DNA of 64,000 nt. Origin: Bacteroidales bacterium (lineage in GTDB: Bacteria; Bacteroidota; Bacteroidia; Bacteroidales; UBA12077). The DNA lies in NCBI GenBank assembly GCA_021108325.1, contig JAIORB010000027.1, forward strand, positions 20,469 through 84,468, written 5' to 3'. Position numbers and translations under genes: made by a program. Each line of letters starts with the position of its first letter. Position 1 is the first letter of the stretch. The notes beneath the pieces are model-generated. The model saw nothing but the letters and a program-made list of their open reading frames with translations, had not been told where the DNA came from and searched no databases. This document shows positions 1 through 24,992 of this stretch, one piece after another.

Positions 1-2418
1 ATATTTTGATTCATCAATATCTGTTGAATTTACGAGTAAGTATATATTTGTTTCAATCTTATTGAAACTTGAAGCTATTTTTTCTATATCTACTAAAGTA
101 TGTTTAGTTGGTTCTTTTTCAGGATCAAGAAAACCAATAATATTTACTTGATCATTATGAATTGTTATTTCATTTTCCAATAGGTCTTTGAATTTTTCAG
201 GAAGCTGAATTTTAGCAATTGGTTTAAGGGATTCGGTATTCTTTCTGAGTTTTATTGTAATTTCTTTATGAATTCCTGCTTCTATATTGAAATATTGCAT
301 GGTAGTAAGAACAGTCCCACCTGGCTGTCTGTTTCCTGTTAAAAGAAGATAATTCCCGGTTTCTAATTCAAAAACTTCATTCATTTCACTAATTGGAGTA
401 TCCCAGCCATAATCTAAAGTATGATATTTCCCATCTTCGAATTTTGATAAAGCAAAATGAACCCTGTATTTTAAATCAGTATTGTTTTCTTTGCTATTTA
501 TCAGCTTTAATGTTCCGGTTTGTTTTATAATATCAGATTTAACTTCTTTAAAATTCACATCAGTCCATTTTTCTTTATAGTACTGTGGAGTTTTTGTTGC
601 CGGTTCAAGTCGTGAAGGTATTCCAAAGCTTCGGCAAGCTGCTACAAAAAATAAATCACGCGAATATTCATCCGCCTTTTTTAATTCATATACTCCTTTT
701 GCAGTAATTGGCACTCTGTAAAAGTTTTCATCTTTATAAATACTTATTTCTTTTGTAATCCAATTGCTTAAGTAAGTTATATCCTTTTTTGTATTTTCAA
801 TAAAGTCATTACTAAAAGCTCCTTGAAGAAATGCTTTATACGAAATCAGTTTTTCATTTTCTATCCTGGGATTAAGGATGTAATTCACAAATAACTCTCT
901 GTTTGTTTCTGGTAACTCTCCGGTAAAAATAAAGGAGTATTTAATATGAGAAAGTAAAATTTCAGATTTCCCGTCGCGTAAATCTTTAGGTGCAATTGCA
1001 TTAAGTACAGGAATTGTAAACTCATTGTTAATTTCGGCGGCTTTTTCTATAAAGTCAACAATTTCAGGATAATTACCACGGCTTTTTTCAATAAAATCCC
1101 AAACAACTAAAGGTTCAAACTTGTATTTTGTGGCAAGATTCTCAGCATCTTTTTTACTCATGAAAGTACTCGCATAAGTTTCGCGGATTGCATCTTCTTC
1201 TTTTAATCGTTTTTTATTTTCTTCTTTTCCTTCAGCTGATACTCCTTTTGGCTCTTTTTCAATTGGCGGAACAATATCAAAAAAATCTGTATATTCTTTT
1301 CCTGTGTGCGCTTGTAATTTTAAAATTACTGTATCAGTTTGTTCAACTGTAATTTTCTGATACGCGTAATTATTATTCTTGTATGCCCAAATTATCAAAT
1401 CGCCGAGTCCGGTCATTAATGATGCGAAGCCATTTTGATCTACTTGTTTTTTACCAATTGGATAAAACTCTGCATAATTATATAATTGAAATTCTACAGT
1501 AGCATCTTTTATAATTTCTTCGTTCTCGTCAATAACTCTGGCATAAATTGTTTTTACAGGAGCATAATTGCTTAGCATGTTAACCTTAGTATATTTTTCT
1601 TCTTTTCGAATAATTTCTTCCGCCCCGGAATATTTACCAAAAACATTAGAACTAACCATCATTGCTCTTAAAGCAGGAGCCGAAAACCATGCAATATCTA
1701 AATCCGGTGCCGGTTCGCAAGCACCAAGAAAGTGCCATTCACCATCAACCCAAACTTCAACCCATGCATGATTATCATCGCTATGTGCCCAGCGTGGAGT
1801 ATAACATTGGCGAGCAGGAATTCCTGCTGCACGCATTGCTGTTACTGTAAAAGTTGATTCTTCACCACATCTTCCGTAAGTTGATTTTATTACTCCTAAA
1901 GGAGAAATTGTTCGTATATCGGTTGGTTGATAAGTTATTTTTTCGTGACACCAGTGATTCACTTCCAGAATAGCTTCTTTTAACTCTAAACCATGCAGCC
2001 TTTCGCTTAATTCTTTATAAAATACGGCTCTTGAAGTATCTAAGTTTTCGTTGTTAACACGATAAGGTAAAACAAAATGTCTGAAAATATCTTCGGGAAT
2101 TTGACCTCCCCAATTGAATGTTTCACGGGTTTTCAGTGCCAGCCTGATGTTTTTCAAATAAAAATCACCATCGTAATCAGCTAAATCGCTTAAAGGCATA
2201 TAAGCATAAAGAAACATTAAAGCTTCTTTTTCTTCCAGACTCAAGTTTTTTTCAAAAACATTAAATAGTTCTGTTTGTCTGTTTGAAGCAAATTGTTTTA
2301 CTTTTTCAAAATCTGATTTTACAGTCTTTAAATATTCTTTATCGTTTATAAAATGAGATTGTCGAGTACATCCTGTAATTACTATAGTTACAAGAAGTAT
2401 AACAAGTGTTTTTTTCAT
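1..2418 (-). CDS. transglutaminase-like domain lipoprotein (first 806 codons; 3' end lies beyond the left window edge)
   Basis: Not in the supplied ORF track because it has no stop codon inside the window. My reverse-strand translation from ATG 2418-2416 gives MKKTLVILLVTIVITGCTRQ (signal peptide plus lipobox Cys). It continues into transglutaminase-core context YGRCGEESTF ... HSDDNHAWVEVWVDGEWHFLGACEP. Spot checks show the frame stays open to base 1 (last codons DIDESKY). Confidence 0.7.
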   Translation of the reverse strand, partial: MKKTLVILLVTIVITGCTRQSHFINDKEYLKTVKSDFEKVKQFASNRQTELFNVFEKNLSLEEKEALMFLYAYMPLSDLADYDGDFYLKNIRLALKTRETFNWGGQIPEDIFRHFVLPYRVNNENLDTSRAVFYKELSERLHGLELKEAILEVNHWCHEKITYQPTDIRTISPLGVIKSTYGRCGEESTFTVTAMRAAGIPARQCYTPRWAHSDDNHAWVEVWVDGEWHFLGACEPAPDLDIAWFSAPALRAMMVSSNVFGKYSGAEEIIRKEEKYTKVNMLSNYAPVKTIYARVIDENEEIIKDATVEFQLYNYAEFYPIGKKQVDQNGFASLMTGLGDLIIWAYKNNNYAYQKITVEQTDTVILKLQAHTGKEYTDFFDIVPPIEKEPKGVSAEGKEENKKRLKEEDAIRETYASTFMSKKDAENLATKYKFEPLVVWDFIEKSRGNYPEIVDFIEKAAEINNEFTIPVLNAIAPKDLRDGKSEILLSHIKYSFIFTGELPETNRELFVNYILNPRIENEKLISYKAFLQGAFSNDFIENTKKDITYLSNWITKEISIYKDENFYRVPITAKGVYELKKADEYSRDLFFVAACRSFGIPSRLEPATKTPQYYKEKWTDVNFKEVKSDIIKQTGTLKLINSKENNTDLKYRVHFALSKFEDGKYHTLDYGWDTPISEMNEVFELETGNYLLLTGNRQPGGTVLTTMQYFNIEAGIHKEITIKLRKNTESLKPIAKIQLPEKFKDLLENEITIHNDQVNIIGFLDPEKEPTKHTLVDIEKIASSFNKIETNIYLLVNSTDIDESKY

Positions 2419-2539
2419 AATGATTTTTTTCGGAATAGGATAAAAATACTTAAGATATTTTTAAATTAACATTTATTGAGTTCTTTTTTCGGAATCTGAA
2501 TTAACAACATTAAATTTGTTATATAATTATTGATTTTTG

Positions 2540-4639
2540 ATGAAATTAAGAATATCCATATTAACCGGTTTGTTTTTGTTGTTGTCGGTTTTAGTATTTT
2601 CCCAAAACGACAGCGCATTAGTTCCTGTTAAATATAAATTAGTTAAGCCCGTATCGCGAACAATACCAAATTATTCCGGCGATCTTCAAACGCAAACAGC
2701 TCGTTTAAAATCAGAAAAACAAATTAGGATTTTAGTTTTAGATCAGGATAATCAGCCTGGTAAAAATTTAGTTGTAAAACTTCAGATGTTTTCTGTTCCG
2801 GATGGCGATAAAAAATTTAAAATTATTGATACTCTTGCGTATACTGATACATTAGGAATTGCAGAAACATATGTTATTTTGGGCTCAAAAGAAGGAATGT
2901 ATGAAATTTCGGCTCAATTGGTAAAATATCCGGAAACTAATTTTTTGATTTATAAAGTTTTTGCACGGAAAACCAATTGGGTATTTCTTCTTATTGCCGG
3001 TTTAATTGGAGGATTGGGATTGTTCCTTTTAGGAATGAATATGATGAGTGACGGTATGCAAAATGCAGCTGGTGATAAAATGCGAACAGTTTTGAGTCAG
3101 ATTACGCACAATCGATTTATTGCAGTTGGAGTTGGAACATTTGTTACTATGGTTATTCAAAGTAGCAGTACCACAACGGTTATGCTGGTGAGTTTTGTTC
3201 ATTCTAAACTAATTAAATTTAAAAATACCATTGGCATAATTCTGGGAGCAGGAATTGGGACAACTATAACGGCACAGTTAATAGCATTCAAATTAACAGA
3301 CTATTCTCTTTTATTAATTGGAATTGGTTTTTTATTGAACTCATTTACTAAATCGGTATATATACGAAATATCGGCAAAACCATTTTAGGGTTTGGGATA
3401 TTGTTTTTTGGAATGCATATTATGTCAGAATCGATGTATCCATTGAGATCTTTCTCCCCTTTTATAGATTCAATAGTAAAACTTGAAAATCCGGTTTTGG
3501 GAATACTTATAGGTGCGGCATTTACTGCTTTAATACAAAGTAGTAGTGCATTTATTGGTATCATGATTGTATTGGCAACACAGGGCTTATTGAGTTTAGA
3601 AGCGTCTATTCCTTTGCTTTTTGGAGCAAATATAGGAACAGCAATTACGGCAATTTTAGCAAGTATAAAAACCGATCGTGAAGCAAAACAGGTTGCTTTA
3701 GCTCATACATTGATAAAAGTTATTGGTGTTCTTCTCTTTTTATTTTGGATTCCGCAATTTGCAAATATCGTTCGGATAATTTCACCTAAAAGCGTATTGC
3801 CTGATGGAGATTTTAATTCTTTAGCCGAAACGGTTCCGCGTCAGATTGCCAATGCACATACCGTTTTTAATATTGTTTTAACATGTTTAATTCTCCCTTT
3901 TACAAATGCTTTTGGAAAATTTATTGAAAAACTTCTTCCCGTAAAATTTGTTGAAAAACCAATTTTAAAACCGATTTATCTTGATTATGGAATGGTAAAG
4001 AATTCATCTTTGGCATTGAGCTTAGCAAAAAAAGAAACAATAAGGATGGGTAAGTTGGTTCAAAATATGACCGGAGATATTATTATTCCATATTTAGTTA
4101 AAAAAACAGAAGTTATAAATGAGATAAAACAAAAAGAGAAGGAGGTTAATTTTCTGCGTGATCAGATTAGTGATTATATATTGAAAATTACGCGCGAAAA
4201 CCTTAATGAAGAGCGTGTAAATGAATCATTCCAGTTACTATATGCGGTAAAAGAATTTGAACAAATTGCTGATATAGTATCTAAAAACATGATAAAAAAA
4301 GCGGCAAGATGGAGTAAAATGGATTTTGAATTTTCTGTTGATGGTAAAAATGAGATTATAAATTATCATACAAAAACCCAAAAACAGCTAAGCAGGGCAT
4401 TGGAAGTATTCGAAAATGTAAATTTGGAGAAAGCAAAAGCGATGAAAGAAAAATACCGACGATATCGAAATATGGAAATCGAATTAGAGAAGCAACATTT
4501 CAAAAGATTGCAGGATGAAATAATAGAAACAATCTCGAGTAGTAAAACACACGTTGAACTAATGACATATCTGAGAGCTATCAACGGTCATGCAACGAAT
4601 ATTGCCAGAATATTGTTAAAATGGCCGATAAAAAACTAA
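2540..4639 (+). CDS. Na+/phosphate cotransporter family protein with C-terminal PhoU-like region and an extra N-terminal secreted domain
   Basis: Two Na/Pi-cotransporter repeats (VIQSSSTTTVMLV and LIQSSSAFIGIMIV) in a polytopic membrane core, followed by a helical C-terminal part. The N-terminus has a signal peptide plus about 150 aa not expected for this family. ATG at 2540 sits directly after the TTG used by the track. Confidence 0.8.
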   Translation: MKLRISILTGLFLLLSVLVFSQNDSALVPVKYKLVKPVSRTIPNYSGDLQTQTARLKSEKQIRILVLDQDNQPGKNLVVKLQMFSVPDGDKKFKIIDTLAYTDTLGIAETYVILGSKEGMYEISAQLVKYPETNFLIYKVFARKTNWVFLLIAGLIGGLGLFLLGMNMMSDGMQNAAGDKMRTVLSQITHNRFIAVGVGTFVTMVIQSSSTTTVMLVSFVHSKLIKFKNTIGIILGAGIGTTITAQLIAFKLTDYSLLLIGIGFLLNSFTKSVYIRNIGKTILGFGILFFGMHIMSESMYPLRSFSPFIDSIVKLENPVLGILIGAAFTALIQSSSAFIGIMIVLATQGLLSLEASIPLLFGANIGTAITAILASIKTDREAKQVALAHTLIKVIGVLLFLFWIPQFANIVRIISPKSVLPDGDFNSLAETVPRQIANAHTVFNIVLTCLILPFTNAFGKFIEKLLPVKFVEKPILKPIYLDYGMVKNSSLALSLAKKETIRMGKLVQNMTGDIIIPYLVKKTEVINEIKQKEKEVNFLRDQISDYILKITRENLNEERVNESFQLLYAVKEFEQIADIVSKNMIKKAARWSKMDFEFSVDGKNEIINYHTKTQKQLSRALEVFENVNLEKAKAMKEKYRRYRNMEIELEKQHFKRLQDEIIETISSSKTHVELMTYLRAINGHATNIARILLKWPIKN

Positions 4640-8138: not shown

Positions 8139-9128
8139 CTAAAAAGGCTTAAACCCTATAATTTTTCTTACTTCTTTAATTGTTTTAGATGCGCTTTCTC
8201 TTGCTTTTTCCGCACCCATGTTTGCTACTTTCCTTAAATAATCGTTATCAGCAGAAATTTCCAGTATTTTTTCCCGAATAGGAGATGTGAAATTTATGAT
8301 ATCTTCGGCCAGCTGCTTTTTTAAATCACCATACCTGATTTCGCAATTAGCATATTTTCCTTTAAAAAAATCAATCGTACTTTTTTCTGAAACAACGTCC
8401 ATTAATGTAAATAAGTTTTGTATAGGTTCAGGCATTTCTGTATTCATTTCAGTGGGACCACTATCAGTAACAGCACGCATAACTTTTTTTCTAATATCTT
8501 TAGGATCATCAACTAGGTAAATTCCATTTCCTTCTGATTTTCCCATTTTTCCCGTACCGTCTAAGCCTGGAATTTTTATTAATGCCTGACCAAAATTATA
8601 TGGTTGAGGTTCAGTAAAATATTCAACTTTATACAAGTTATTGAAACGACGTGCAAATTTACGGGCCATTTCCAGATTTTGTTCCTGATCTTTTCCCACA
8701 GGAACTTTTGAAGCGTTATGAATAATAATGTCAGCAGCCATTAGAACAGGATAAGTTAAAAGACCCGCGTTTACATTTTCGGGCTGCTTTCGTACCTTAT
8801 CTTTAAATGATGTTGTTCGCTCAAGTTCCCCAACATAGGCATTCATGTTAAGAAGCAAATATAATTCTGTTACTTCCGGAACATCGCTTTGTAAGTATAA
8901 AGTAGCAACTTCCGGATCTAAGCCACAAGCCAGGTATTCTGCCAGAACTTGCTTAACGCTGCCATGTAAATCCCCCGGAGTGGGATGTGTGGTTAATGAA
9001 TGATAATCCGCAATAAAGAAAAAACACCTGTTCTCGTGTTGCATTTTTATGAAATTTTTTAATGCCCCAAAGTAATTTCCTAAATGTAGGTTTCCTGTCG
9101 ATCTAATTCCACTAACAACCGTTTCCAT
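8139..9128 (-). CDS. trpS: tryptophan--tRNA ligase
   Basis: Class I signature GNLHLGNYFGA (HIGH-like) and KMGKS (KMSKS); 329 aa is typical of TrpRS. Confidence 0.9.
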   Translation of the reverse strand: METVVSGIRSTGNLHLGNYFGALKNFIKMQHENRCFFFIADYHSLTTHPTPGDLHGSVKQVLAEYLACGLDPEVATLYLQSDVPEVTELYLLLNMNAYVGELERTTSFKDKVRKQPENVNAGLLTYPVLMAADIIIHNASKVPVGKDQEQNLEMARKFARRFNNLYKVEYFTEPQPYNFGQALIKIPGLDGTGKMGKSEGNGIYLVDDPKDIRKKVMRAVTDSGPTEMNTEMPEPIQNLFTLMDVVSEKSTIDFFKGKYANCEIRYGDLKKQLAEDIINFTSPIREKILEISADNDYLRKVANMGAEKARESASKTIKEVRKIIGFKPF

Positions 9129-16714: not shown

Positions 16715-18157
16715 TTGAAAAGAAAGTTTTTTACCAACCTTTCATTATTAGTATTGCTTAATCTGTTGATTAAGCCATTCTGGATATTCGGTATCGATCG
16801 AACCGTTCAGAATGTTGTTGGTGCAGAAGAGTACGGATTGTACTTTTCACTTTTTAACTTTTCCTTATTGCTGAATATGCTACTCGATTTTGGCATTACT
16901 AACTATAATAACCGGAATATTGCTCAAAATCATCAGTTATTAAGTAAGTCATTATCAAATATTGTTGGCTTAAAACTGCTTCTGGCAATATTGTATGCAA
17001 TAGTAACTATTGTTGTAGGGTTCTTTATTGGCTACGAAGGGAGGCAGTTCCAGTTATTGTTATTCCTGATTTTAAATCAGTTTATAGCATCTTTTATTTT
17101 ATATCTCAGGTCAAATCTAAGTGGTTTGCATTATTTTAAAACCGATAGCTTTATTTCAGTTCTCGATCGCGCACTAATGATTATAATTTGCGGGATTTTA
17201 CTCTGGGGTGGGGTAACAGAAACTGATTTTAAAATTGAATGGTTTGTTTATGCACAAACAGTAGCTTATGTGTCGACTGTGTTAATTACGATGGTTATTG
17301 TATACAGTAAAGCAGAGTTATTGAGTTTAAATTTCGATAAAACATATTTTATTGCCACCTTAAAAAAGAGTTATCCATACGCTTTATTAGCGCTTTTAAT
17401 GGTTTTTTATTACAGGGTCGATTCGGTGATGCTTGAAAGAATGTTGCCTGACGGGAAAGAGCAGGCAGGAATATATGCACAGGGTTTCAGAATTTTAGAT
17501 GCAGCAGCTATGTTTGCATTTTTGTTTGCTGTGTTACTTCTTCCAATATTCTCACGAATGATAAAACAGAAAAACCCGGTTAATCAGTTAACACTTTTCT
17601 CGTTTTTATTATTAATTGTTCCTGTTTTGGGTGTTACTTTCGCATCGTATTTTTACAGAACAGAACTAATTGATTTACTGTATCATCAGCATGTTGAAAC
17701 ATCAGCATCAATTTTTGGAATATTGATATTATGTTTTATTGGAATATCTACAAGTTATATTTTTGGAACATTGTTAACTGCTAACGGAAGTTTAAAAGAG
17801 TTAAACATTATGGCTACAGGAGGCGTTATAATTAACATTGTACTTAATTTGATATTGATTCCAAAATATTACGCTTTTGGTGCTGCAATAGCCAGTTTAA
17901 TTACTCAATCATTTACTGCAATTATACAGATTGTTCTTGCAAAAAGAATATTTGGATTTAATATTAATATTAAAAGAATTACGATATTAACACTTTTTGT
18001 AGCAGGAGTTTTTGTTATTGCAAAACTTTCACTACAAGTAAATTTATTCTGGATTTATAAATTTGTCGGAATTATTGTGTTCTCGTTAATTCTGGCTTTT
18101 GTATTCAGATTAATAAATCTGAAAGTATTATACGATCTTGTTAAAAATGGTGATTAG
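16715..18157 (+). CDS. polysaccharide/oligosaccharide flippase (Wzx / MOP superfamily)
   Basis: 480-aa polytopic membrane protein with many TM helices, sitting beside glycosyltransferase and methyltransferase genes. Confidence 0.65.
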   Translation: MKRKFFTNLSLLVLLNLLIKPFWIFGIDRTVQNVVGAEEYGLYFSLFNFSLLLNMLLDFGITNYNNRNIAQNHQLLSKSLSNIVGLKLLLAILYAIVTIVVGFFIGYEGRQFQLLLFLILNQFIASFILYLRSNLSGLHYFKTDSFISVLDRALMIIICGILLWGGVTETDFKIEWFVYAQTVAYVSTVLITMVIVYSKAELLSLNFDKTYFIATLKKSYPYALLALLMVFYYRVDSVMLERMLPDGKEQAGIYAQGFRILDAAAMFAFLFAVLLLPIFSRMIKQKNPVNQLTLFSFLLLIVPVLGVTFASYFYRTELIDLLYHQHVETSASIFGILILCFIGISTSYIFGTLLTANGSLKELNIMATGGVIINIVLNLILIPKYYAFGAAIASLITQSFTAIIQIVLAKRIFGFNINIKRITILTLFVAGVFVIAKLSLQVNLFWIYKFVGIIVFSLILAFVFRLINLKVLYDLVKNGD

Positions 18158-18163
18158 TAAAGA

Positions 18164-18196
18164 ACCTTTTCCAAAGTTTAAAACTTTAGAAAAGGT
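18164..18196. terminator. bidirectional palindromic terminator between flippase and phosphohexomutase genes
   Basis: accttttccaaagttt-a-aaactttagaaaaggt: 16-bp arms with one mismatch. Nearly the same sequence as the palindrome at 54210-54239. Confidence 0.6.
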
Positions 18197-18206
18197 TTAA
18201 AAAATA

Positions 18207-19544
18207 TTATTTGAATTTCTTAAGAATCGTTTTAATATCTTTTATTCTTTCTTTTAGTATTTCTTTATTATCAGCTTCAACTAATAATCGCAAATAGGGC
18301 TCAGTATTGGAAGGGCGAACATTGAACCACCAGTTTTTAAATTCGATACGATAACCATCAAAATCAAGAATTTCCATAGGTTCTTCTTCGGTAACGAAAT
18401 AATCTTTTAAAGCTTCCATAGCTTCTTGTTTTTGCTCAATTTTAAAATTGATTTCGCCGGAATTTGCGTATTTACTAATATTTGAAATTATCTCCGACAT
18501 GGTTTTTCCTTCTTTTTTAAATTGTGAAAGCAGATTTAAAACAATTAATGAGGCTAAAATACCTGAATCGGAATAAAAGAAATCGCGGAAATAATAATGA
18601 CCTGCTAATTCGCCGCCGTATATACCGTTTATTTCTCTTAATTTTGGCGTAGCATAAGCTCTCCCCACTCGCCAGGTGTGCATTTTACCACCTAGCTTTT
18701 CAACATATTCTTTTACAGCTTTTGATGTACGGATATCTTCAAGAACAGCACCGTTTTCTTTTTCAAGAAAATAATGTGCCATAAATCCAATAATTAAATC
18801 CGGAGAAATGAACTTGCCTTTTTCGTCAACAAACATTACACGATCCGCATCGCCATCGAAAATAACTCCAATATCACATTTTTCACTTAAAACTGTTTTT
18901 TTAAGGTCAGCAACATTTTCTTCGATTAAAGGATTTGGTTCATGATTTGGGAAGCTGCCATCCAGGTCTTCATATAAATAAACAGGTCTTTTGCCTAAGA
19001 ACTTTTTAATTAAAAACCCGGCCATCCCATTAGAACAATCTACAGCCATTTTCAGGTTTGAGTAATCCTGAACATAAGTTTTTAAAAACTCAACATATTC
19101 ACCTTTAACTTTATAGTCAACTATTTTCCCTTTCTTATCTGCAATAACAATATCACGGGTTTGGATCATTTCTAAAAGCTTTTTCAATCCTGTATCATAA
19201 CCAACGGGCAAAGCATTGGATTTAGAAATTTTCATTCCGTTATACTCACGTGAATTATGCGATGCTGTAATTTGCACCGATGCAGCAAAATTATGTTTTG
19301 CTGTAATGTAATATACCATTGGAGTAGTTGAAATACCAATATTATAAACATTTGCTCCACTATCAATAATTCCCTGAGCAAGATTTTCAAAAATTTCATC
19401 AGAAGAAATCCTAACATCTCTTCCAACAAGTACATTGTCGGCTTGTAAAAGTTCTGGCAGAAAATACCCGATTTTATAAGCATCATCTTTATTGAAATCC
19501 TCGTTATAAATACCTCTGATGTCGTATGCCTTAAAAGCTTTCAT
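18207..19544 (-). CDS. phosphomannomutase/phosphoglucomutase (alpha-D-phosphohexomutase family)
   Basis: Phosphoserine loop TASHNSREYNGMK and metal-binding loop FDGDADRVMF; 445 aa. Confidence 0.85.
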   Translation of the reverse strand: MKAFKAYDIRGIYNEDFNKDDAYKIGYFLPELLQADNVLVGRDVRISSDEIFENLAQGIIDSGANVYNIGISTTPMVYYITAKHNFAASVQITASHNSREYNGMKISKSNALPVGYDTGLKKLLEMIQTRDIVIADKKGKIVDYKVKGEYVEFLKTYVQDYSNLKMAVDCSNGMAGFLIKKFLGKRPVYLYEDLDGSFPNHEPNPLIEENVADLKKTVLSEKCDIGVIFDGDADRVMFVDEKGKFISPDLIIGFMAHYFLEKENGAVLEDIRTSKAVKEYVEKLGGKMHTWRVGRAYATPKLREINGIYGGELAGHYYFRDFFYSDSGILASLIVLNLLSQFKKEGKTMSEIISNISKYANSGEINFKIEQKQEAMEALKDYFVTEEEPMEILDFDGYRIEFKNWWFNVRPSNTEPYLRLLVEADNKEILKERIKDIKTILKKFK

Positions 19545-19645
19545 AATTAAATTTACATTAATAGAACTGATAATTTAGAAAGAAAGAAGCCAGATTTTAA
19601 ACTGACTTTCAAAAGTTTTCGATGATGCAAAAATGCGATTTTTTT

Positions 19646-20932
19646 TTATTTTGTTAAAGCTTTAACGGGTTCAATTCCCAAGGTTGTTCCTTCCTGAATT
19701 GCTTTTAAAACAGCTCCACCTCCCGTAAATATATAATACTTAGGACTGTCGAGTGCAACAATATATAATCCCGGCAATAATCTTTTTAATTCCTGCATGG
19801 TATCGCCGCCGCCATAAAGTTTTACTGCTTCAATATTTTCATCAATTAATTCGTCGAGAGCAATTGTACCTTCATTAAAATGTGGTGTGAATCCCATTAC
19901 TGCATTTACAAAAATGGTTCTTGCCGAAGAAAATATTTTATGGATATCGTCTTCGTAGAATGATTCTTTTGCAACATCAAGAACATAATTGAGCTTAGTT
20001 CCGGGCTTTAATTCATGAATGTTATGTATCCTGTTTTTACCTTCAAATTTACCTTCCATGGTGTCTGATTCAATAATAAACGGGAGCTCAACTAATTTGC
20101 CGGGATATTTCTCACTGAATTCAGCAAACTTTTTTGCATGAGCCAAATCATCTTCAGAAATACCTTTTATTTCAATATCGTATTTTGCGCATAAATATGC
20201 GTTATAAATAACACCTCCTAATACCAGGTAATCAGCCTTTTTAATTAAAGCATAAAGTGAATCAATTTTTGTGTCGAATTTTGAACCAGCAACAACAGCA
20301 ATAAACGGAGATTGAGGACTATAAATTCTTTCAAGGTTTTCAATTTCTTTTTGCATTAAGAATCCGGCATAAGAAGGAAGATATTTATTTACTCCAACAG
20401 TAGAAGCATGTGCTTGCCACGATCCAAAAGCATCGTTTACAAAAATATCTGCTAATCCGGCCAGTTGATTTGAGAAACGATCCATATCAGCTCCTTTTGC
20501 TTCTTCGCCTTGAAACCATCGAGTGTTTGGTAAATAAATCCCATCAATTTTACCATCTTTTAATTCACGAATAGAATGATTTATTGATGTTTCTATTCCA
20601 ATGTATCCTTTATTTTCGTGAGGATAAAAATCCGGAATTTTCATGTTAATATGGAGCTTGTTACGCAGGTATTCAACAATTGGCTCAACAGACGTATCCT
20701 TACTTATTTTAATATCTCCGGTTTTTTTATCTTTTGGTCGCCCAACATGCGACATTAAAATTATTTTACCACCTTTAGCGTTGATGTGGTAAAGCGTTCC
20801 AATTGTGGCATCTATTCTGTATGGATCATGAATAATCCCTTTTTTAACTACATTATGATCAACACGAACCAAAACAATCTTGCCGTTAAGATCAGCATCC
20901 TGAATTAATGGAATATTATATTTATCGAGCAT
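19646..20932 (-). CDS. divergent phosphoglycerate kinase family protein (PGK-like paralog)
   Basis: PGK landmarks are retained: RVDHNV, SHVGRP, NDAFGS..AHAS, AGSKFDTK, GGGDT and TGGGA. The canonical AHRAH is replaced by WQAH and WNGPxGVFE by VNAVMGFTP (alignment by eye). Confidence 0.7.
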   Translation of the reverse strand: MLDKYNIPLIQDADLNGKIVLVRVDHNVVKKGIIHDPYRIDATIGTLYHINAKGGKIILMSHVGRPKDKKTGDIKISKDTSVEPIVEYLRNKLHINMKIPDFYPHENKGYIGIETSINHSIRELKDGKIDGIYLPNTRWFQGEEAKGADMDRFSNQLAGLADIFVNDAFGSWQAHASTVGVNKYLPSYAGFLMQKEIENLERIYSPQSPFIAVVAGSKFDTKIDSLYALIKKADYLVLGGVIYNAYLCAKYDIEIKGISEDDLAHAKKFAEFSEKYPGKLVELPFIIESDTMEGKFEGKNRIHNIHELKPGTKLNYVLDVAKESFYEDDIHKIFSSARTIFVNAVMGFTPHFNEGTIALDELIDENIEAVKLYGGGDTMQELKRLLPGLYIVALDSPKYYIFTGGGAVLKAIQEGTTLGIEPVKALTK

Positions 20933-20935
20933 TTT

Positions 20936-20942
20936 ACCTCCT
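20936..20942 (-). promoter_or_regulatory. perfect Shine-Dalgarno AGGAGGT in front of the PGK-like gene
   Basis: The minus strand reads aaaaacAGGAGGTaaaATG. I found no comparable SD in front of the other start codons inspected in this window. Confidence 0.6.
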
Positions 20943-20952
20943 GTTTTTAAAG

Positions 20953-20972
20953 CCTGTCTGCCGACAGGCAGG
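20953..20972. repeat. GC-rich palindromic hairpin repeat (cctgtctgccgacaggcagg)
   Basis: Overlapping palindromes cctgtc/gacagg and ctgcc/ggcag. A 16-nt identity links it to copies at 14611-14626 and (reverse complement) 45125-45140. Confidence 0.7.
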
Positions 20973-21101
20973 TTTGAAAATTGTTATCTGAAAGGGAACA
21001 CAATTTAAAGCAAAATTGTTTTTTAAACAATAAAATTGTTTTGAATAAACAAGAATTGCCTTAAATTTAGTGACTTTAAATTGAAAGATGAATTGTGTTT
21101 C

Positions 21102-23486
21102 TCAAATATCCTCATTAATAGCTTTTAAAGCAGGCAGTTCCTTTCCTTCAATATATTCCAGTAAAGCTCCTCCGGCTGTCGAAATATAACTTATTTTATA
21201 AGCTAGACTAAATTTATTTACAGCAGCAATGGAATCACCGCCTCCGATTAAGGAAAATGCTCCTTTATCGGTAGCACGAGCCACTGCCATGGCAATTTTT
21301 AAGGTTCCCATTGAGTAATTTGACATTTCAAAAACTCCTATTGGCCCGTTCCAGAGTATAGTAGATGAGTTTTCAATTACTTCGGTAAATTCATTGGCCG
21401 ATTTTATTCCGATGTCCAAACCCATCCATCCATCTTTAATCTGACCTATTTCGCAATGTTCAATATTTGCATTATTATTAAATTCGTCAGCAATAATACA
21501 GTCGGTAGGTAAATACAGGTTTACATTATTTTCTTTAGCTTTTGTAATAATGTTTTTTGCAACATCAAGGTAATCATCTTCAACTAAAGAATTTCCAATT
21601 TTACCACCCATAGCTTTAGCAAAAGTAAAAGCAATTCCACCGGCAATAATTAAATTGTCAACTTTTTCAATTAATGCTTCAATGATGTGTATTTTAGTTG
21701 ACACCTTCGATCCTCCCAGAATTGCAGTAAATGGTCTTTTCGCTTGTTTTATTACTTTATCGATATTATTAATTTCATTTTCCACCAGGTAGCCAAACAT
21801 TTTGTCTTCAGGAAAAAACTTGGCTAAAGTGTATGTTGAAGCATGTGCTCTGTGTGCTGTTCCAAAAGCATTAAAAACATAAGTATCGCCAAGTTCAGCC
21901 AATTGTTTAGTGAAATTCTCATCTGCATCGATTTCCTCAGTATGGAATCGAAGATTTTCAAGTAACAGGCATTCTCCCGGTTTTAGAACTGTTGCGGCAA
22001 TTATTGCTTCTTCTCCGATGCAGTTAGCAGCAAATTTTACTTTTTTATCAAGAGCTTTTGATAAATAAGGTAATATATGTTTTAATGAAAAATCTTCGTT
22101 GAACTTTCCTTTTGGTCTGCCTAAATGAGTTAAGAATATAACAGAACCACCTTCGGCTAATATTTTACGAGCTGTCGGTAATGCAGTAATAATTCTTGTG
22201 TCATCGGTAATTTTCCTGTTTTCGTCCATAGGAACATTGAAATCAACACGCATTAAAACTTTTTTGCCCTCAAAGTTATATCGGTCAATGGTTAAGTTTT
22301 GCTTAATAGCTTTAATACTTGGCAGTTCCTTTCCTTCAAGGTATTCCAGTAATGCACCGCCGGCTGTCGATATATAGCTGATTTTATGAGCTAAACTATA
22401 CTTGTTAATTGCAGCTATTGAATCACCTCCGCCAATCAAGGAAAACGCCCCTTTATCAGTTGCACGGGCTACTGACATAGCAATTTTTAGTGTTCCCATC
22501 GAAAAACTTGGCATTTCAAAAACACCTATCGGGCCATTCCAAAGTATTTTTTCGGAGTTTTCGATCACTTCTGAAAAGCGATTTGCAGATTTAATTCCAA
22601 TGTCAAGACCCATCCATTCATCAGGTATTTCATTAATATCACAATGATCAATTTGGGCATCATTTTTAAAATCATCTGCAATAATGCAATCGCTTGGTAA
22701 ATATAATTTAACTTTATTTTTTTCAGCCTCTTTAATAATATGTTTTGCAAAATCTAAAAACTCATCTTCAACTAAAGAATTTCCGATTTTACCACCCATA
22801 GCTTTAGCAAATGTGTATGCAATTCCTCCCGCAATAATTAAATTATCTACCTTTTCTATTAATGTTTCTATAATATGGATTTTAGTAGATATTTTCGATC
22901 CTCCGAGAATTGCTGTAAAAGGATGCAAAGGTTGGTGTAAAATTTTGTCTATATTATTTATTTCACTTTCGACAAGATACCCAAACATGCTGTTTTTTGG
23001 AAAATGTTTAACAATAGTGTAAGTCGAAGCATGTGCTCTGTGTGCAGTACCAAATGCATTATTTACATATACATCACCAAGGCTGGCAAGGTGTTTTGCA
23101 AAATCTTCATCAGCATCTGTTTCTTCTTTATAAAACCTTAGATTTTCTAATAAAAGAATTTCACCGGGTTTTAGGGTTTTAGCTAGTTTTTCTGCTTTAA
23201 TCCCAATACAATCCGTTGCAAATTTAACTTCTCGATCAAGGACTTTGCTTAAATGAGGAAGGATTATTTTTAAGGACATTCTCTCATTAAATTGACCTTT
23301 TGGTCTTCCCAGGTGTGTTAAAAGAATTATAGATCCACCTTCAGCTAAAATTTTTTGAATCGTTGGTATTGCAGTAATAATCCTTGTATCATCGGTTATT
23401 TCAAGTTTTTCATTTAACGGAACGTTAAAATCCACGCGCATTAATACTTTTTTTCCTGTAAAATTATAGTTGTCGATAGAATACAT
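21102..23486 (-). CDS. pgk: tandem phosphoglycerate kinase fusion (two complete PGK modules in one ORF)
   Basis: 794-aa ORF. Module 1 is codons 1-397 (23486-22296) and module 2 is codons 398-794 (22295-21102). Both carry [38 protein letters not shown](I/V)[13 protein letters not shown] and GGGDS. The junction reads [14 protein letters not shown] with no stop and no start codon. Confidence 0.85.
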
Positions 23487-23610
23487 GCCTGGTGCTTTTA
23501 TGTTGATATGTTAAAGATAGAAAGATTTGACATTTTTCAAAAACACCTAAAAGTAGTTAACATTTTTGAATTGTATTAACTTTGACCCGTTATAGTAGCT
23601 GAAATTTGTA

Positions 23611-23691
23611 CCGAAAGTTTTCGGGATGAAATTGGGAAAAGGCTTGGTCTCCTGTCTTGTCGGCTGGCAGGCTAATCAAATTTCCAATTTC
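23611..23691. repeat. composite intergenic palindromic repeat cluster
   Basis: ccgaaa-gt-tttcgg (23611-23624), cctgtcttgtcggctggcagg (23651-23671), and flanking inverted repeat gaaattggg (23628-23636) / tccaatttc (23683-23691). Confidence 0.55.
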
Positions 23692-23864
23692 TAATTTCAG
23701 ATGATTAACACACAAAATAATATTATACATTTAATAATCTAAATTGTAAACAGGAATATGAAAAATGCCAAATATTTATTTGTGGTTTGTATTTCGTTTA
23801 TTGTTATTTTTGCTCATTATCTGTTTTTGAAGTTAAAATATCTAAGTAAAATTATTTAACATTT

Positions 23865-24992
23865 ATGCAATTTAAAGAAGTAGTTGGACATCATAAAATA
23901 AAGGAAAAATTAATACATACTATAAAGGGAAACAGGGTAAGTCATGCTCAACTTTTTTTAGGTTCTGAAGGCTCAGGGAATCTGGCTTTGGCAATAGCCT
24001 ATGCTCAATATGTTTCTTGTGAGGACAAACAGGAAAATGATTCTTGTGGAGTTTGTCCGTCGTGTATAAAGTTTCAAAAATTAGTTCATCCCGATCTGCA
24101 TTTTGTTTATCCGGTGTCAACATCAAAAACCGTAAAAAAAAATCCTGTTAGCGATGATTATATAACTCTGTGGCGCGAAATAATTATTGAAAATCCATAT
24201 ATAAATCAGAACAAGTGGTATGAAATAATTGATGTTGAAAATAAACAGGGAATTATTAGCAAGAACGAAAGTAAAGAAATTTTAAAAAAACTGAATCTCA
24301 AAACTTTTGAATCAGAATATAAGATTATGATTATATGGTTGCCGGAAAAGATGAATGCCGCCGCCGCCAGTAAATTATTAAAATTAATTGAAGAGCCTCC
24401 TGCGAAGACATTGTTTTTAATGGTTTCGGAAAATTCGGAGCAAATATTATCAACTATACTTTCAAGAACTCAATTAATAAAAATTCCTAAAATTGATAAT
24501 GAAAGTATGCGTAACGCACTTTGCGACAGATTGGGATTATTACCAGAAAAGGCCGGCGATATAGCTCATCTGGCAAACGGAAATTATTTCGAAGCACAAA
24601 ATCTGATAAGCTCAACTGAAGAAGATAATGATAATTTTGATCAGTTTACACAATTTATGCGATTGTCTTATCAGCGAAAAGTTATTGAAATAATTAATTG
24701 GGTTGATGAAATTTCCAGGATAGGACGAGAAAAACAGAAGAGCTTTTTAGCCTATTCTCTTAGGCTTATTCGAGAAAATTTTATGCTAAATATTAAAAAT
24801 AAAGACCTTGTATATCTGACAAAGAAAGAATTAGAATTTTCTGAAAAATTTTCTCAGTTTATTAATCAGGAAAATATTTATCAGATTTATGAAGCATTGA
24901 ATCGAGCTCATTCCGATATTGAAATGAATGCTTACAATAAAATTGTGTTTTTAGATTTAGCTTTAAAGATTATAAAATTGATAAAAAAGTAA
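23865..24992 (+). CDS. holB: DNA polymerase III subunit delta-prime
   Basis: AAA+ clamp-loader fold: SHAQLFLGSEGSGNLALAIAYAQYVSC, zinc module CGVCPSCIKF, and SRT-type sensor motif ILSRTQ. Confidence 0.8.
   Translation: MQFKEVVGHHKIKEKLIHTIKGNRVSHAQLFLGSEGSGNLALAIAYAQYVSCEDKQENDSCGVCPSCIKFQKLVHPDLHFVYPVSTSKTVKKNPVSDDYITLWREIIIENPYINQNKWYEIIDVENKQGIISKNESKEILKKLNLKTFESEYKIMIIWLPEKMNAAAASKLLKLIEEPPAKTLFLMVSENSEQILSTILSRTQLIKIPKIDNESMRNALCDRLGLLPEKAGDIAHLANGNYFEAQNLISSTEEDNDNFDQFTQFMRLSYQRKVIEIINWVDEISRIGREKQKSFLAYSLRLIRENFMLNIKNKDLVYLTKKELEFSEKFSQFINQENIYQIYEALNRAHSDIEMNAYNKIVFLDLALKIIKLIKK

Follow-up and report, generated by a model that had tools for sequence, protein, structure and literature searches.

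Phosphoglycerate kinase (PGK) is a textbook monomeric hinge-bending enzyme. The usual PGK is a single unit of ~45 kDa, and usually a monomer. In a 64,000-nucleotide stretch of contig JAIORB010000027.1 from a Bacteroidales bacterium (from here on, the window), one gene departs from this pattern by encoding a protein of 794 aa with two PGK units. The locus raises the questions of whether the two units are genuinely fused, how the fusion came about, and whether both units function as PGKs. An earlier note on this DNA had described one open reading frame (ORF) dividing into 397 + 397 codons, and we found this ORF with its ATG start, 794 codons, and a single stop. Two full-length matches to PF00162 were detected in the protein with a total score of 993 bits (cut-off, 27), the best of which spans aa 4-386 and profile positions 1-379 of 379. 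The two units are genuinely joined, and the arrangement is conserved across a clade and is not an artifact; based on sequence comparisons, we consider it probable that the protein is a covalent pseudo-dimer in which two catalytically competent PGK units act in glycolysis and gluconeogenesis.

We refer to aa 1-397 as module N and to aa 398-794 as module C. The two modules align without gaps with 76% identity and 88% positives, matching an earlier estimate by eye of about three-quarters identity. The register between the halves is shifted by one residue such that M-Y-S-I-D pairs with N-L-T-I-D; the position of the former initiator Met of the second module is N397, and L398 is the next residue. 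The claim that this Met had been replaced by a TTA-encoded Leu therefore stood in part: a TTA Leu is present at the junction, but the residue aligned to the Met is N397. As described earlier, the junction codons AAC and TTA (22298-22293) contain neither a stop nor an ATG, GTG, or TTG. The first in-frame ATG past the junction is codon 412 (window 22253), which lies within the first β-strand motif, and a start at this codon would cost module C ~14 N-terminal residues. Thus, the second module is not independently translatable without truncation, as had been proposed. At the DNA level, the two halves are 73% identical, with 77, 43, and 196 differences at the first, second, and third codon positions, respectively. 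Using the Nei-Gojobori method, we obtained a synonymous divergence (dS) of ~1.9, which is near saturation, and a nonsynonymous divergence (dN) of 0.167; the dN/dS ratio between the halves, which the earlier note had proposed as a check, is 0.087. Together with the excess of third-position differences, these values support the suggestion of an old duplication kept under purifying selection. An assembly duplication can be discounted, since 27% of the nucleotides are different in the two halves and dS is saturated.

When 5.8 billion proteins were searched with a word index, at least 120 cluster representatives were recovered. Full-length proteins (785-830 aa) accounted for 112 of these, had 64-98% identity, and came from NCBI, JGI, ENA, and Logan; the exact window protein was present in NCBI, Logan, and ENA assemblies. 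Two-domain PF00162 proteins, a search for which had been suggested, were in this way found to form a sizeable family with the same fusion. Public databases already contain these proteins, named simply "phosphoglycerate kinase," and the fusion is not unique to the window. Scanning GTDB with one genome for each species, we identified ~23 species with the fused gene (L001-L023), nearly all of them metagenome-assembled genomes (MAGs) labelled Bacteroidales or Bacteroidota; the fusion locus of L021 is on a complete 3.94-Mb chromosome (OY781043.1). In 21 of the 21 loci with a complete gene, the frame is open through 794-797 codons with the junction at 397/397 and without a stop at the junction, and the stop codon or frameshift that would speak against a fusion was not seen in these related genomes. 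At the position of the former Met, the residue is N, S, Q, T, D, or similar, and it is followed by L, Y, H, or F; a Met was never found at either position in the 21 complete loci or in those of the 112 cluster representatives that aligned at the junction. Across relatives, the residues around the junction (marked by a slash) follow the pattern IKQ[NS]/[LYF][TS][IV]D.

These data bear on the alternative that the fusion is an artifact, i.e., that it represents two adjacent genes, an assembly duplication, or a module C translated from the ATG at codon 412. Two observations point in this direction. In an NCBI record of Bacteroidetes bacterium GWF2_33_16 (L086, 2713-3867), only a 384-aa PGK starting at an internal Met is annotated. 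Moreover, the unrelated P0409, a single bacterial-like contig, encodes two PGK halves that are 100% identical in protein and would be either a very recent duplication or an artifact. However, the DNA of L086 is identical to that of the ENA contig L085, in which an intact fused ORF of 795 aa was called (1480-3867); therefore, the short call is an annotation choice, and annotation can hide a PGK-PGK fusion. The saturated divergence of the halves, the in-frame junction in all complete species-level loci and the aligned representatives, the truncation that a start at M412 would impose, and the lack of any unfused adjacent pair of this pgk among 80 loci all argue in the same direction. We regard this alternative as exceedingly improbable, and the artifact and two-gene versions are already refuted.

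With regard to the origin of the gene, all fused modules formed one clade in a neighbor-joining tree (100 of 100 bootstraps), and this clade was nested among single-module Bacteroidota PGKs. The fused gene is divergent from holB in the genomes of group A (the window and L001-L011) and group B2. The same holB-pgk layout with a single pgk is present in other Bacteroidota (L027-L029, L038, L039, L042, and L044), i.e., the single pgk of these bacteria occupies the same genomic locus as the fusion. Because fused and single pgk share the holB synteny, the duplication is likely to have happened in place at the ancestral locus. In L012 (6001-11410), a contig of 55% GC binned as Candidatus Aminicenantes, the fused gene is directly upstream of gap, a 400-aa pgk, and tpiA on the same strand; here, the fused gene has probably moved as a unit, by horizontal transfer, into a glycolytic cluster. 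L007 is labelled Thiohalospira and has Bacteroidales-type flanks, with holB and the phosphomannomutase (PMM) at 75-84% identity; it is probably mis-binned. Because the fused clade nests among single PGKs, the holB synteny is shared, L012 displays gap-pgk-tpiA linkage, and a second tandem family (P0124, see below) lies beside tpiA, we take the fused gene to be the housekeeping pgk of an uncultured low-GC Bacteroidales clade; the genome carrying the fusion in the window has 32% GC and belongs to a clade of MAGs.

In group A, N and C modules clustered together and apart from group B modules (99 of 100 bootstraps); group B had separate N and C clades (bootstraps of 86 and 96), and the two modules of L012 paired with each other (bootstrap of 84). 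When the alignment was examined in windows of 50 columns, none of them showed an N/N or C/C signal linking groups A and B. Since no such residual signal remains, a single fusion origin rests on the shared junction, which is of identical length in all members and in which the tail IKQ[NS] is common to groups A, B2, and L012 and is unlike the C module's own tail, NEDI or RTKI. The most economical explanation of these patterns would be one fusion followed by concerted evolution through unequal exchange or conversion between the modules. In L003 (~8386-8545), we also observed a degenerate PGK C-terminal remnant, ending in ISSTGGALLEYTEGKELPA and a stop, just past the stop of the fused gene; this remnant suggests a further partial duplication and a locus still prone to such events.

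To place the fusion among PGKs at large, we relied on a HMMER search that exhaustively covered 1.84 billion representatives clustered at 50% identity (E-value ≤0.001) and yielded 27,805 PGK-family proteins. Within this set, PGK-PGK proteins were very rare. Among the best matches, two were full-length bacterial tandems, namely, P0121, which belongs to the family described here, and P0124. The P0124 family (P0124 and P0402-P0407) resembles the window protein in length (797-799 aa), in its linker-free junction with a Met-to-Leu change, and in having both halves intact; its halves are 72-73% identical, and its genes are directly upstream of tpiA in the pgk-tpiA slot. In contrast to the window family, its members have only 42% identity to the window protein, form their own clade far from Bacteroidota, and have N and C modules that remain in distinct clades without signs of homogenization. 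With seven clusters from genomes of 68% GC, this family is small. Its placement points to a second, independent bacterial origin of PGK-PGK.

Eukaryotic multi-PGK proteins share with the window protein the presence of at least two PF00162 units per predicted product, and none of them is related to the Bacteroidales fusion family. Products from dinoflagellates and other marine eukaryotes (P0414-P0416, P0451, P0460, and P0470) contain at least two PGK units that are 88-100% identical, including a product of 2,090 aa from Amphidinium carterae (KAL9138824.1; P0470); this high identity suggests polyprotein-style arrays or recent copies. In plant two-PGK models, the halves are ~84-87% identical and resemble the single plant-like PGK P0141 as closely as they do each other, and these entries may be read-through models of neighboring genes. 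In a snail gene model, the second PGK unit is degenerate. Full-text searches, the coverage of which mostly excluded subscription journals, identified no paper on a PGK-PGK or tandem PGK fusion, and a 2020 PGK review names PGK-TIM and kinetoplastid multidomain PGKs only. Thus, the PGK-PGK architecture appears to be undescribed; it is a variant of a known enzyme and not a new kind of system.

We then asked whether the modules retain what a PGK requires. Residues were numbered after human PGK1, the anchor residues of which match the numbering in the literature. In PGK, R38, K215, K219, G373, and G396 touch the transferring phosphoryl group (PMC5594045), 1,3-bisphosphoglycerate (1,3-BPG) is bound by R122, R65, R170, H62, D23, N25, and R38, and domain closure requires N336 and E343 (PMC3900376). 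The motifs DDTRI, HLGRP, ENLRF, AHRAHAS, the GGSK motif, and GGGDS, which the earlier note had listed as landmarks kept in each half, are all found twice in the window protein. The residues for 3-phosphoglycerate (3-PG) and 1,3-BPG (D23, N25, R38, H62, R65, R122, and R170) are present in both modules of the window protein and of all 22 species-level sequences, and K215, K219, N336, E343, G373, D374, and G395/G396 are all kept in both window modules. Across the 22 species-level sequences and 112 representatives, D23, N25, R38, H62, R65, R122, R170, K219, E343, G373, and D374 were unchanged wherever aligned. The remaining variation in the fused modules consists of conservative S/T exchanges at position 375 and two non-conservative exceptions, K215Q and N336D. 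At position 394 in the hinge, every fused module has Ala, and 27 single Bacteroidota PGKs have Gly; we considered this G394A change as a fusion-specific adaptation and rejected it, Ala being present also in 10 of 118 unrelated single PGK representatives.

Selection has acted on the two modules to the same extent. The dN/dS ratio (omega) between orthologs is 0.02-0.08 for N modules and the same for C modules, the mean pairwise identity among representatives is 0.676 for N modules and 0.665 for C modules, and N modules can be told apart from C modules consistently at just one column of the alignment. Selective constraint is equally strong on both modules, in line with the earlier proposal that both are intact.

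An AF2 model generated from an alignment of 58 full-length fusion proteins had a mean predicted local distance difference test score (pLDDT) of 89, with the secondary-structure pattern repeated in both modules. The junction block had a pLDDT of 73, and no disordered linker was present. Using Foldseek against the PDB, we obtained matches to solved PGKs (3q3v and 1php) with TM-scores of 0.95-0.97 relative to the target over ~390-415 aligned columns; the alignments span approximately one module, and the TM-score relative to the query is ≤0.48. Both analyses support that the predicted model has the two-domain hinge-bending PGK fold. A solved chain covering both modules was found neither by Foldseek against the PDB nor by the sequence search, in which the longest PGK chain was 511 aa. 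In the PDB sequence search, the circularly permuted yeast PGK 1fw8 aligned across the fusion junction, which is consistent with the PGK termini lying close together. In PGKs, the termini do lie close together on the N-domain, and because of this proximity, a linker-free head-to-tail join is tolerable.

Based on these findings, a covalent pseudo-dimer could have arisen and could function as follows. An in situ tandem duplication of pgk would have been followed by the in-frame loss of approximately two C-terminal codons, the stop, the spacer, and the start codon, joining the units head to tail. Each unit would keep the 3-PG/1,3-BPG-binding N-domain, the hinge, and the nucleotide-binding C-domain, giving an 87-kDa protein with two independent active sites for the reaction 1,3-BPG + ADP <-> 3-PG + ATP. 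Because both PGK termini sit on the N-domain, the linker-free join would hold the two substrate-binding N-domains side by side. Subsequently, the modules would have been homogenized repeatedly by concerted evolution under strong purifying selection on both. That both sites are catalytically active is what the conserved residues lead us to infer; the modules would pack as a pseudo-dimer, and by analogy with oligomeric PGKs, the benefit of the pairing would be stability or dosage.

Several observations weigh against this reading or limit its reach. With a predicted TM-score (pTM) of only 0.68 for the AF2 model, any defined packing of the modules against each other is putative. L009-L011, as well as 8 of 110 cluster representatives, carry K215Q in the C module, in the form of GGAQVSTK or GGSQVSTK, and N336D is present together with AHRNH, GGDK, and HWGRP/HRGRP in the N modules of group B2 (L014, L016, L017, L020, and L023), the dN of which is ~1.7 times that of the partner module. 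Two equivalent active sites, as suggested by the sequences, therefore need not hold in every sub-lineage. The fusion coexists with a normal monomeric pgk in L012. With respect to history, repeated re-duplication would also be compatible with the topology of the tree taken by itself. Finally, the assemblies of L087 and L088 have an interrupted N module. We considered these broken modules as a sign that the N module is dispensable and rejected this idea; the interruptions consist of local compensating indels and an A4-to-A5 homopolymer insertion and are most likely sequencing (indel) errors.

The one-sided changes raise the alternative of a division of labor, in which one module works and the other is regulatory, substrate sensing, or structural. 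A precedent for such an arrangement exists in the mammalian 100-kDa hexokinases, in which a glycolytic kinase of ~45-50 kDa has been duplicated in tandem and fused; hexokinase II keeps both halves catalytic, while hexokinase I has one regulatory half. The hexokinases have an actin-like ATPase fold unrelated to PGK, and the likeness is limited to the evolutionary route. K215Q in C modules, as well as N336D and faster evolution in B2 N modules, fits with this alternative, given that K215 contacts the transferring phosphoryl group (PMC5594045) and N336 is essential for closure (PMC3900376). By analogy, the respective sub-lineages may represent early steps toward a hexokinase I-like split. However, the window protein and ~90% of the family keep every catalytic and binding residue in both modules; the constraint on the two modules is equal (omega of 0.02-0.08 each; identity of 0.68 vs 0.67), with a single column separating N from C; and repeated homogenization speaks against a long-standing specialization. 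For the family as a whole, we consider a division of labor unlikely.

Alternatively, both modules could be active but specialized, differing in glycolytic or gluconeogenic optimum or in nucleotide preference, being coupled via the N-domains, or acting together with the PGK-like paralog of 428 aa encoded next to the fused gene. The retention of the fused form after transfer beside a normal pgk in L012 suggests a property that the monomer lacks; moreover, the paralog is syntenic in most Bacteroidales loci, and a second bacterial lineage reached the same architecture independently. Against this alternative, there is no consistent N-versus-C sequence signature, the nucleotide- and substrate-binding residues are identical between modules, and the third paralog occurs alone in Desulfobacterales and other MAGs and is, thus, not an obligate partner. 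Specialized active modules, too, seem to us improbable. A bolder version, which we consider speculative and rather unlikely, is that the units are mechanically or allosterically coupled, or that one is becoming a sensor, and that they form with the paralog (and, in group A, a phosphohexomutase) a specialized three-module PGK-family system of anaerobic Bacteroidales. If this version were true, retention of the fused form in L012 would reflect a property that the monomer lacks.

Returning to the proposed covalent pseudo-dimer, its modules closely resemble monomeric bacterial PGKs. The PGKs of Geobacillus stearothermophilus (1PHP), C. jejuni (3Q3V), and T. maritima (1VPE) have ~45-48% identity over approximately one module, a root-mean-square deviation of 1.3-1.7 Å, and TM-scores of 0.95-0.97 relative to the target, and they have the catalytic and substrate residues in common with it. 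PGKs that associate without a covalent link are also known. Homodimers have been described in Corynebacterium glutamicum, Methanothermus fervidus, and Pyrococcus woesei, and dimerization has been proposed to add stability (PMC3996851); the PGKs of Sulfolobus solfataricus and Trypanosoma brucei are tetramers. Like the fusion, such non-covalent oligomers comprise at least two PGK units per particle, and they are a likely functional analog of it. They are made of separate chains from one gene, whereas in the window protein the pairing is fixed by gene fusion, and the window modules are ordinary bacterial-type PGKs.

A second point of comparison is the PGK-triosephosphate isomerase (TIM) fusion of Thermotoga, in which, as in the window protein, PGK is fused in frame at its C-terminus to a glycolytic enzyme. 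The Thermotoga fusion is a tetramer, and Thermotoga neapolitana makes PGK both alone and fused (PMC7729029). The partner is TIM in Thermotoga and a second PGK in the window protein, in which no PF00121 match was found. Nevertheless, the window protein scores 1,001 bits against NF010569, the NCBIfam equivalog for bifunctional PGK/TIM, at a cut-off of 883. The match covers only profile positions 5-394 of 645 and does not include a TIM portion; the cut-off is passed without a TIM domain because the scores of two PGK units add up. Automated pipelines, therefore, risk misnaming PGK-PGK proteins as PGK/TIM, and together with the half-gene call in NCBI, this match exposes an annotation problem.

The fusion would be a natural system in which to follow the effect of pairing on a domain-closure enzyme, including stability, cooperativity, and channeling with glyceraldehyde-3-phosphate dehydrogenase. 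The tandem has long been conserved across a clade, evolved twice in bacteria, and probably survived horizontal transfer. It would also be a prokaryotic parallel to the duplication-fusion route of the 100-kDa hexokinases, with sub-lineages seemingly at the start of catalytic-residue loss in one half.

The coordinates of the fused gene, its parts, and its neighbors are listed in Table 1. The minus-strand orientation and the third PGK-family ORF downstream were both absent from the earlier note.

Table 1. Fused gene, its modules, and neighboring genes in the window
Feature	Positions	Strand	Basis or remark
PGK-PGK fusion gene	21102..23486	-	ATG start, 794 codons, one terminal stop at 21102-21104; ORF list and translation
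Module N, aa 1-397, complete PGK unit	22296..23486	-	Residue checks, AF2 fold, Foldseek, omega
Module C, aa 398-794, complete PGK unit	21105..22295	-	Residue checks as for module N, omega
Junction codons AAC/TTA (N397/L398)	22293..22298	-	Without linker, stop, or start
Third, divergent PGK-family gene, 428 aa	19646..20932	-	169 nt 3' of fusion gene; PF00162, 277 bits
PGM/PMM-family phosphohexomutase, 445 aa	18207..19544	-	Last gene of same-strand run; four PGM_PMM Pfam domains
holB (DNA polymerase III delta')	23865..24992	+	PF13177; divergent from fusion gene; synteny marker for ancestral pgk locus

The 428-aa paralog retains R38, K215, K219, and GGGDT. It has H169W, R170Q, a change of ENLRF to PNTRW, P338V, loss of E343, and a 7-aa insertion, all of which are conserved in 13 orthologs, and it does not carry the complete 3-PG basic patch and nucleotide site of a canonical PGK. 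These features indicate a member of the PGK superfamily that is probably not a standard PGK and probably a kinase with a different substrate. The paralog follows the fusion in most Bacteroidales loci (L003-L010, L013, L015, L018, L019, L021, L082, L083, and L085). Its family comprises at least 120 clusters with 76-100% identity, among them MAGs named Bacteroidales, Desulfobacterales, Desulfobulbaceae, and Altiarchaeales, and with ~80% identity it stands alone in a complete genome labelled Desulfobacterales and in Altiarchaeales-labelled contigs. For this paralog, neither a specific curated family nor a solved structure was found other than PGK itself. The paralog is not needed to explain the fusion; the locus brings to attention a neighboring, strongly conserved PGK-like family with an altered pocket. 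The phosphohexomutase scores below every NCBIfam equivalog cut-off and is conserved downstream of the third paralog in group A loci.

We also inspected the noncoding DNA around these genes. An Rfam scan of 20800-24000 gave no match and, thus, no known leader RNA. A sigma-70 scan of 18000-24000 gave 34 hits, close to the shuffled expectation of 26.7, with a model that is ill-suited to Bacteroidota promoters, and within this limit nothing in the scan pointed to an internal promoter ahead of module C. A terminator scan of the same region gave 3 hits, likewise close to the 3.5 expected from shuffling. We found precisely two copies of the GC-rich palindrome CCTGTCT(N)GGCAGG in the window (20953-20972 and 23651-23671; 0 expected), one copy being just upstream of the ribosome-binding site of the third paralog and the other ~165-185 nt upstream of the start of the fused gene. 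A role as a shared operator of the fusion and the paralog was considered and rejected, as the palindrome lacks conservation in relatives, a partial copy in L005 being the one exception; the palindrome may be a small repetitive extragenic palindrome-like element. Finally, the spacer between the fused gene and the paralog (~21000-21040, minus strand) contains conserved inverted repeats that are A/T rich and have ACAAT/ATTGT as their core, AACAATTTTATTGTT and ACAATTTTGCTTTAAATTGT, of which ACAATTTTGCTTTAAATTGT recurs in the spacers of five close relatives (L003-L007). These repeats are a candidate operator or hairpin before the third paralog.

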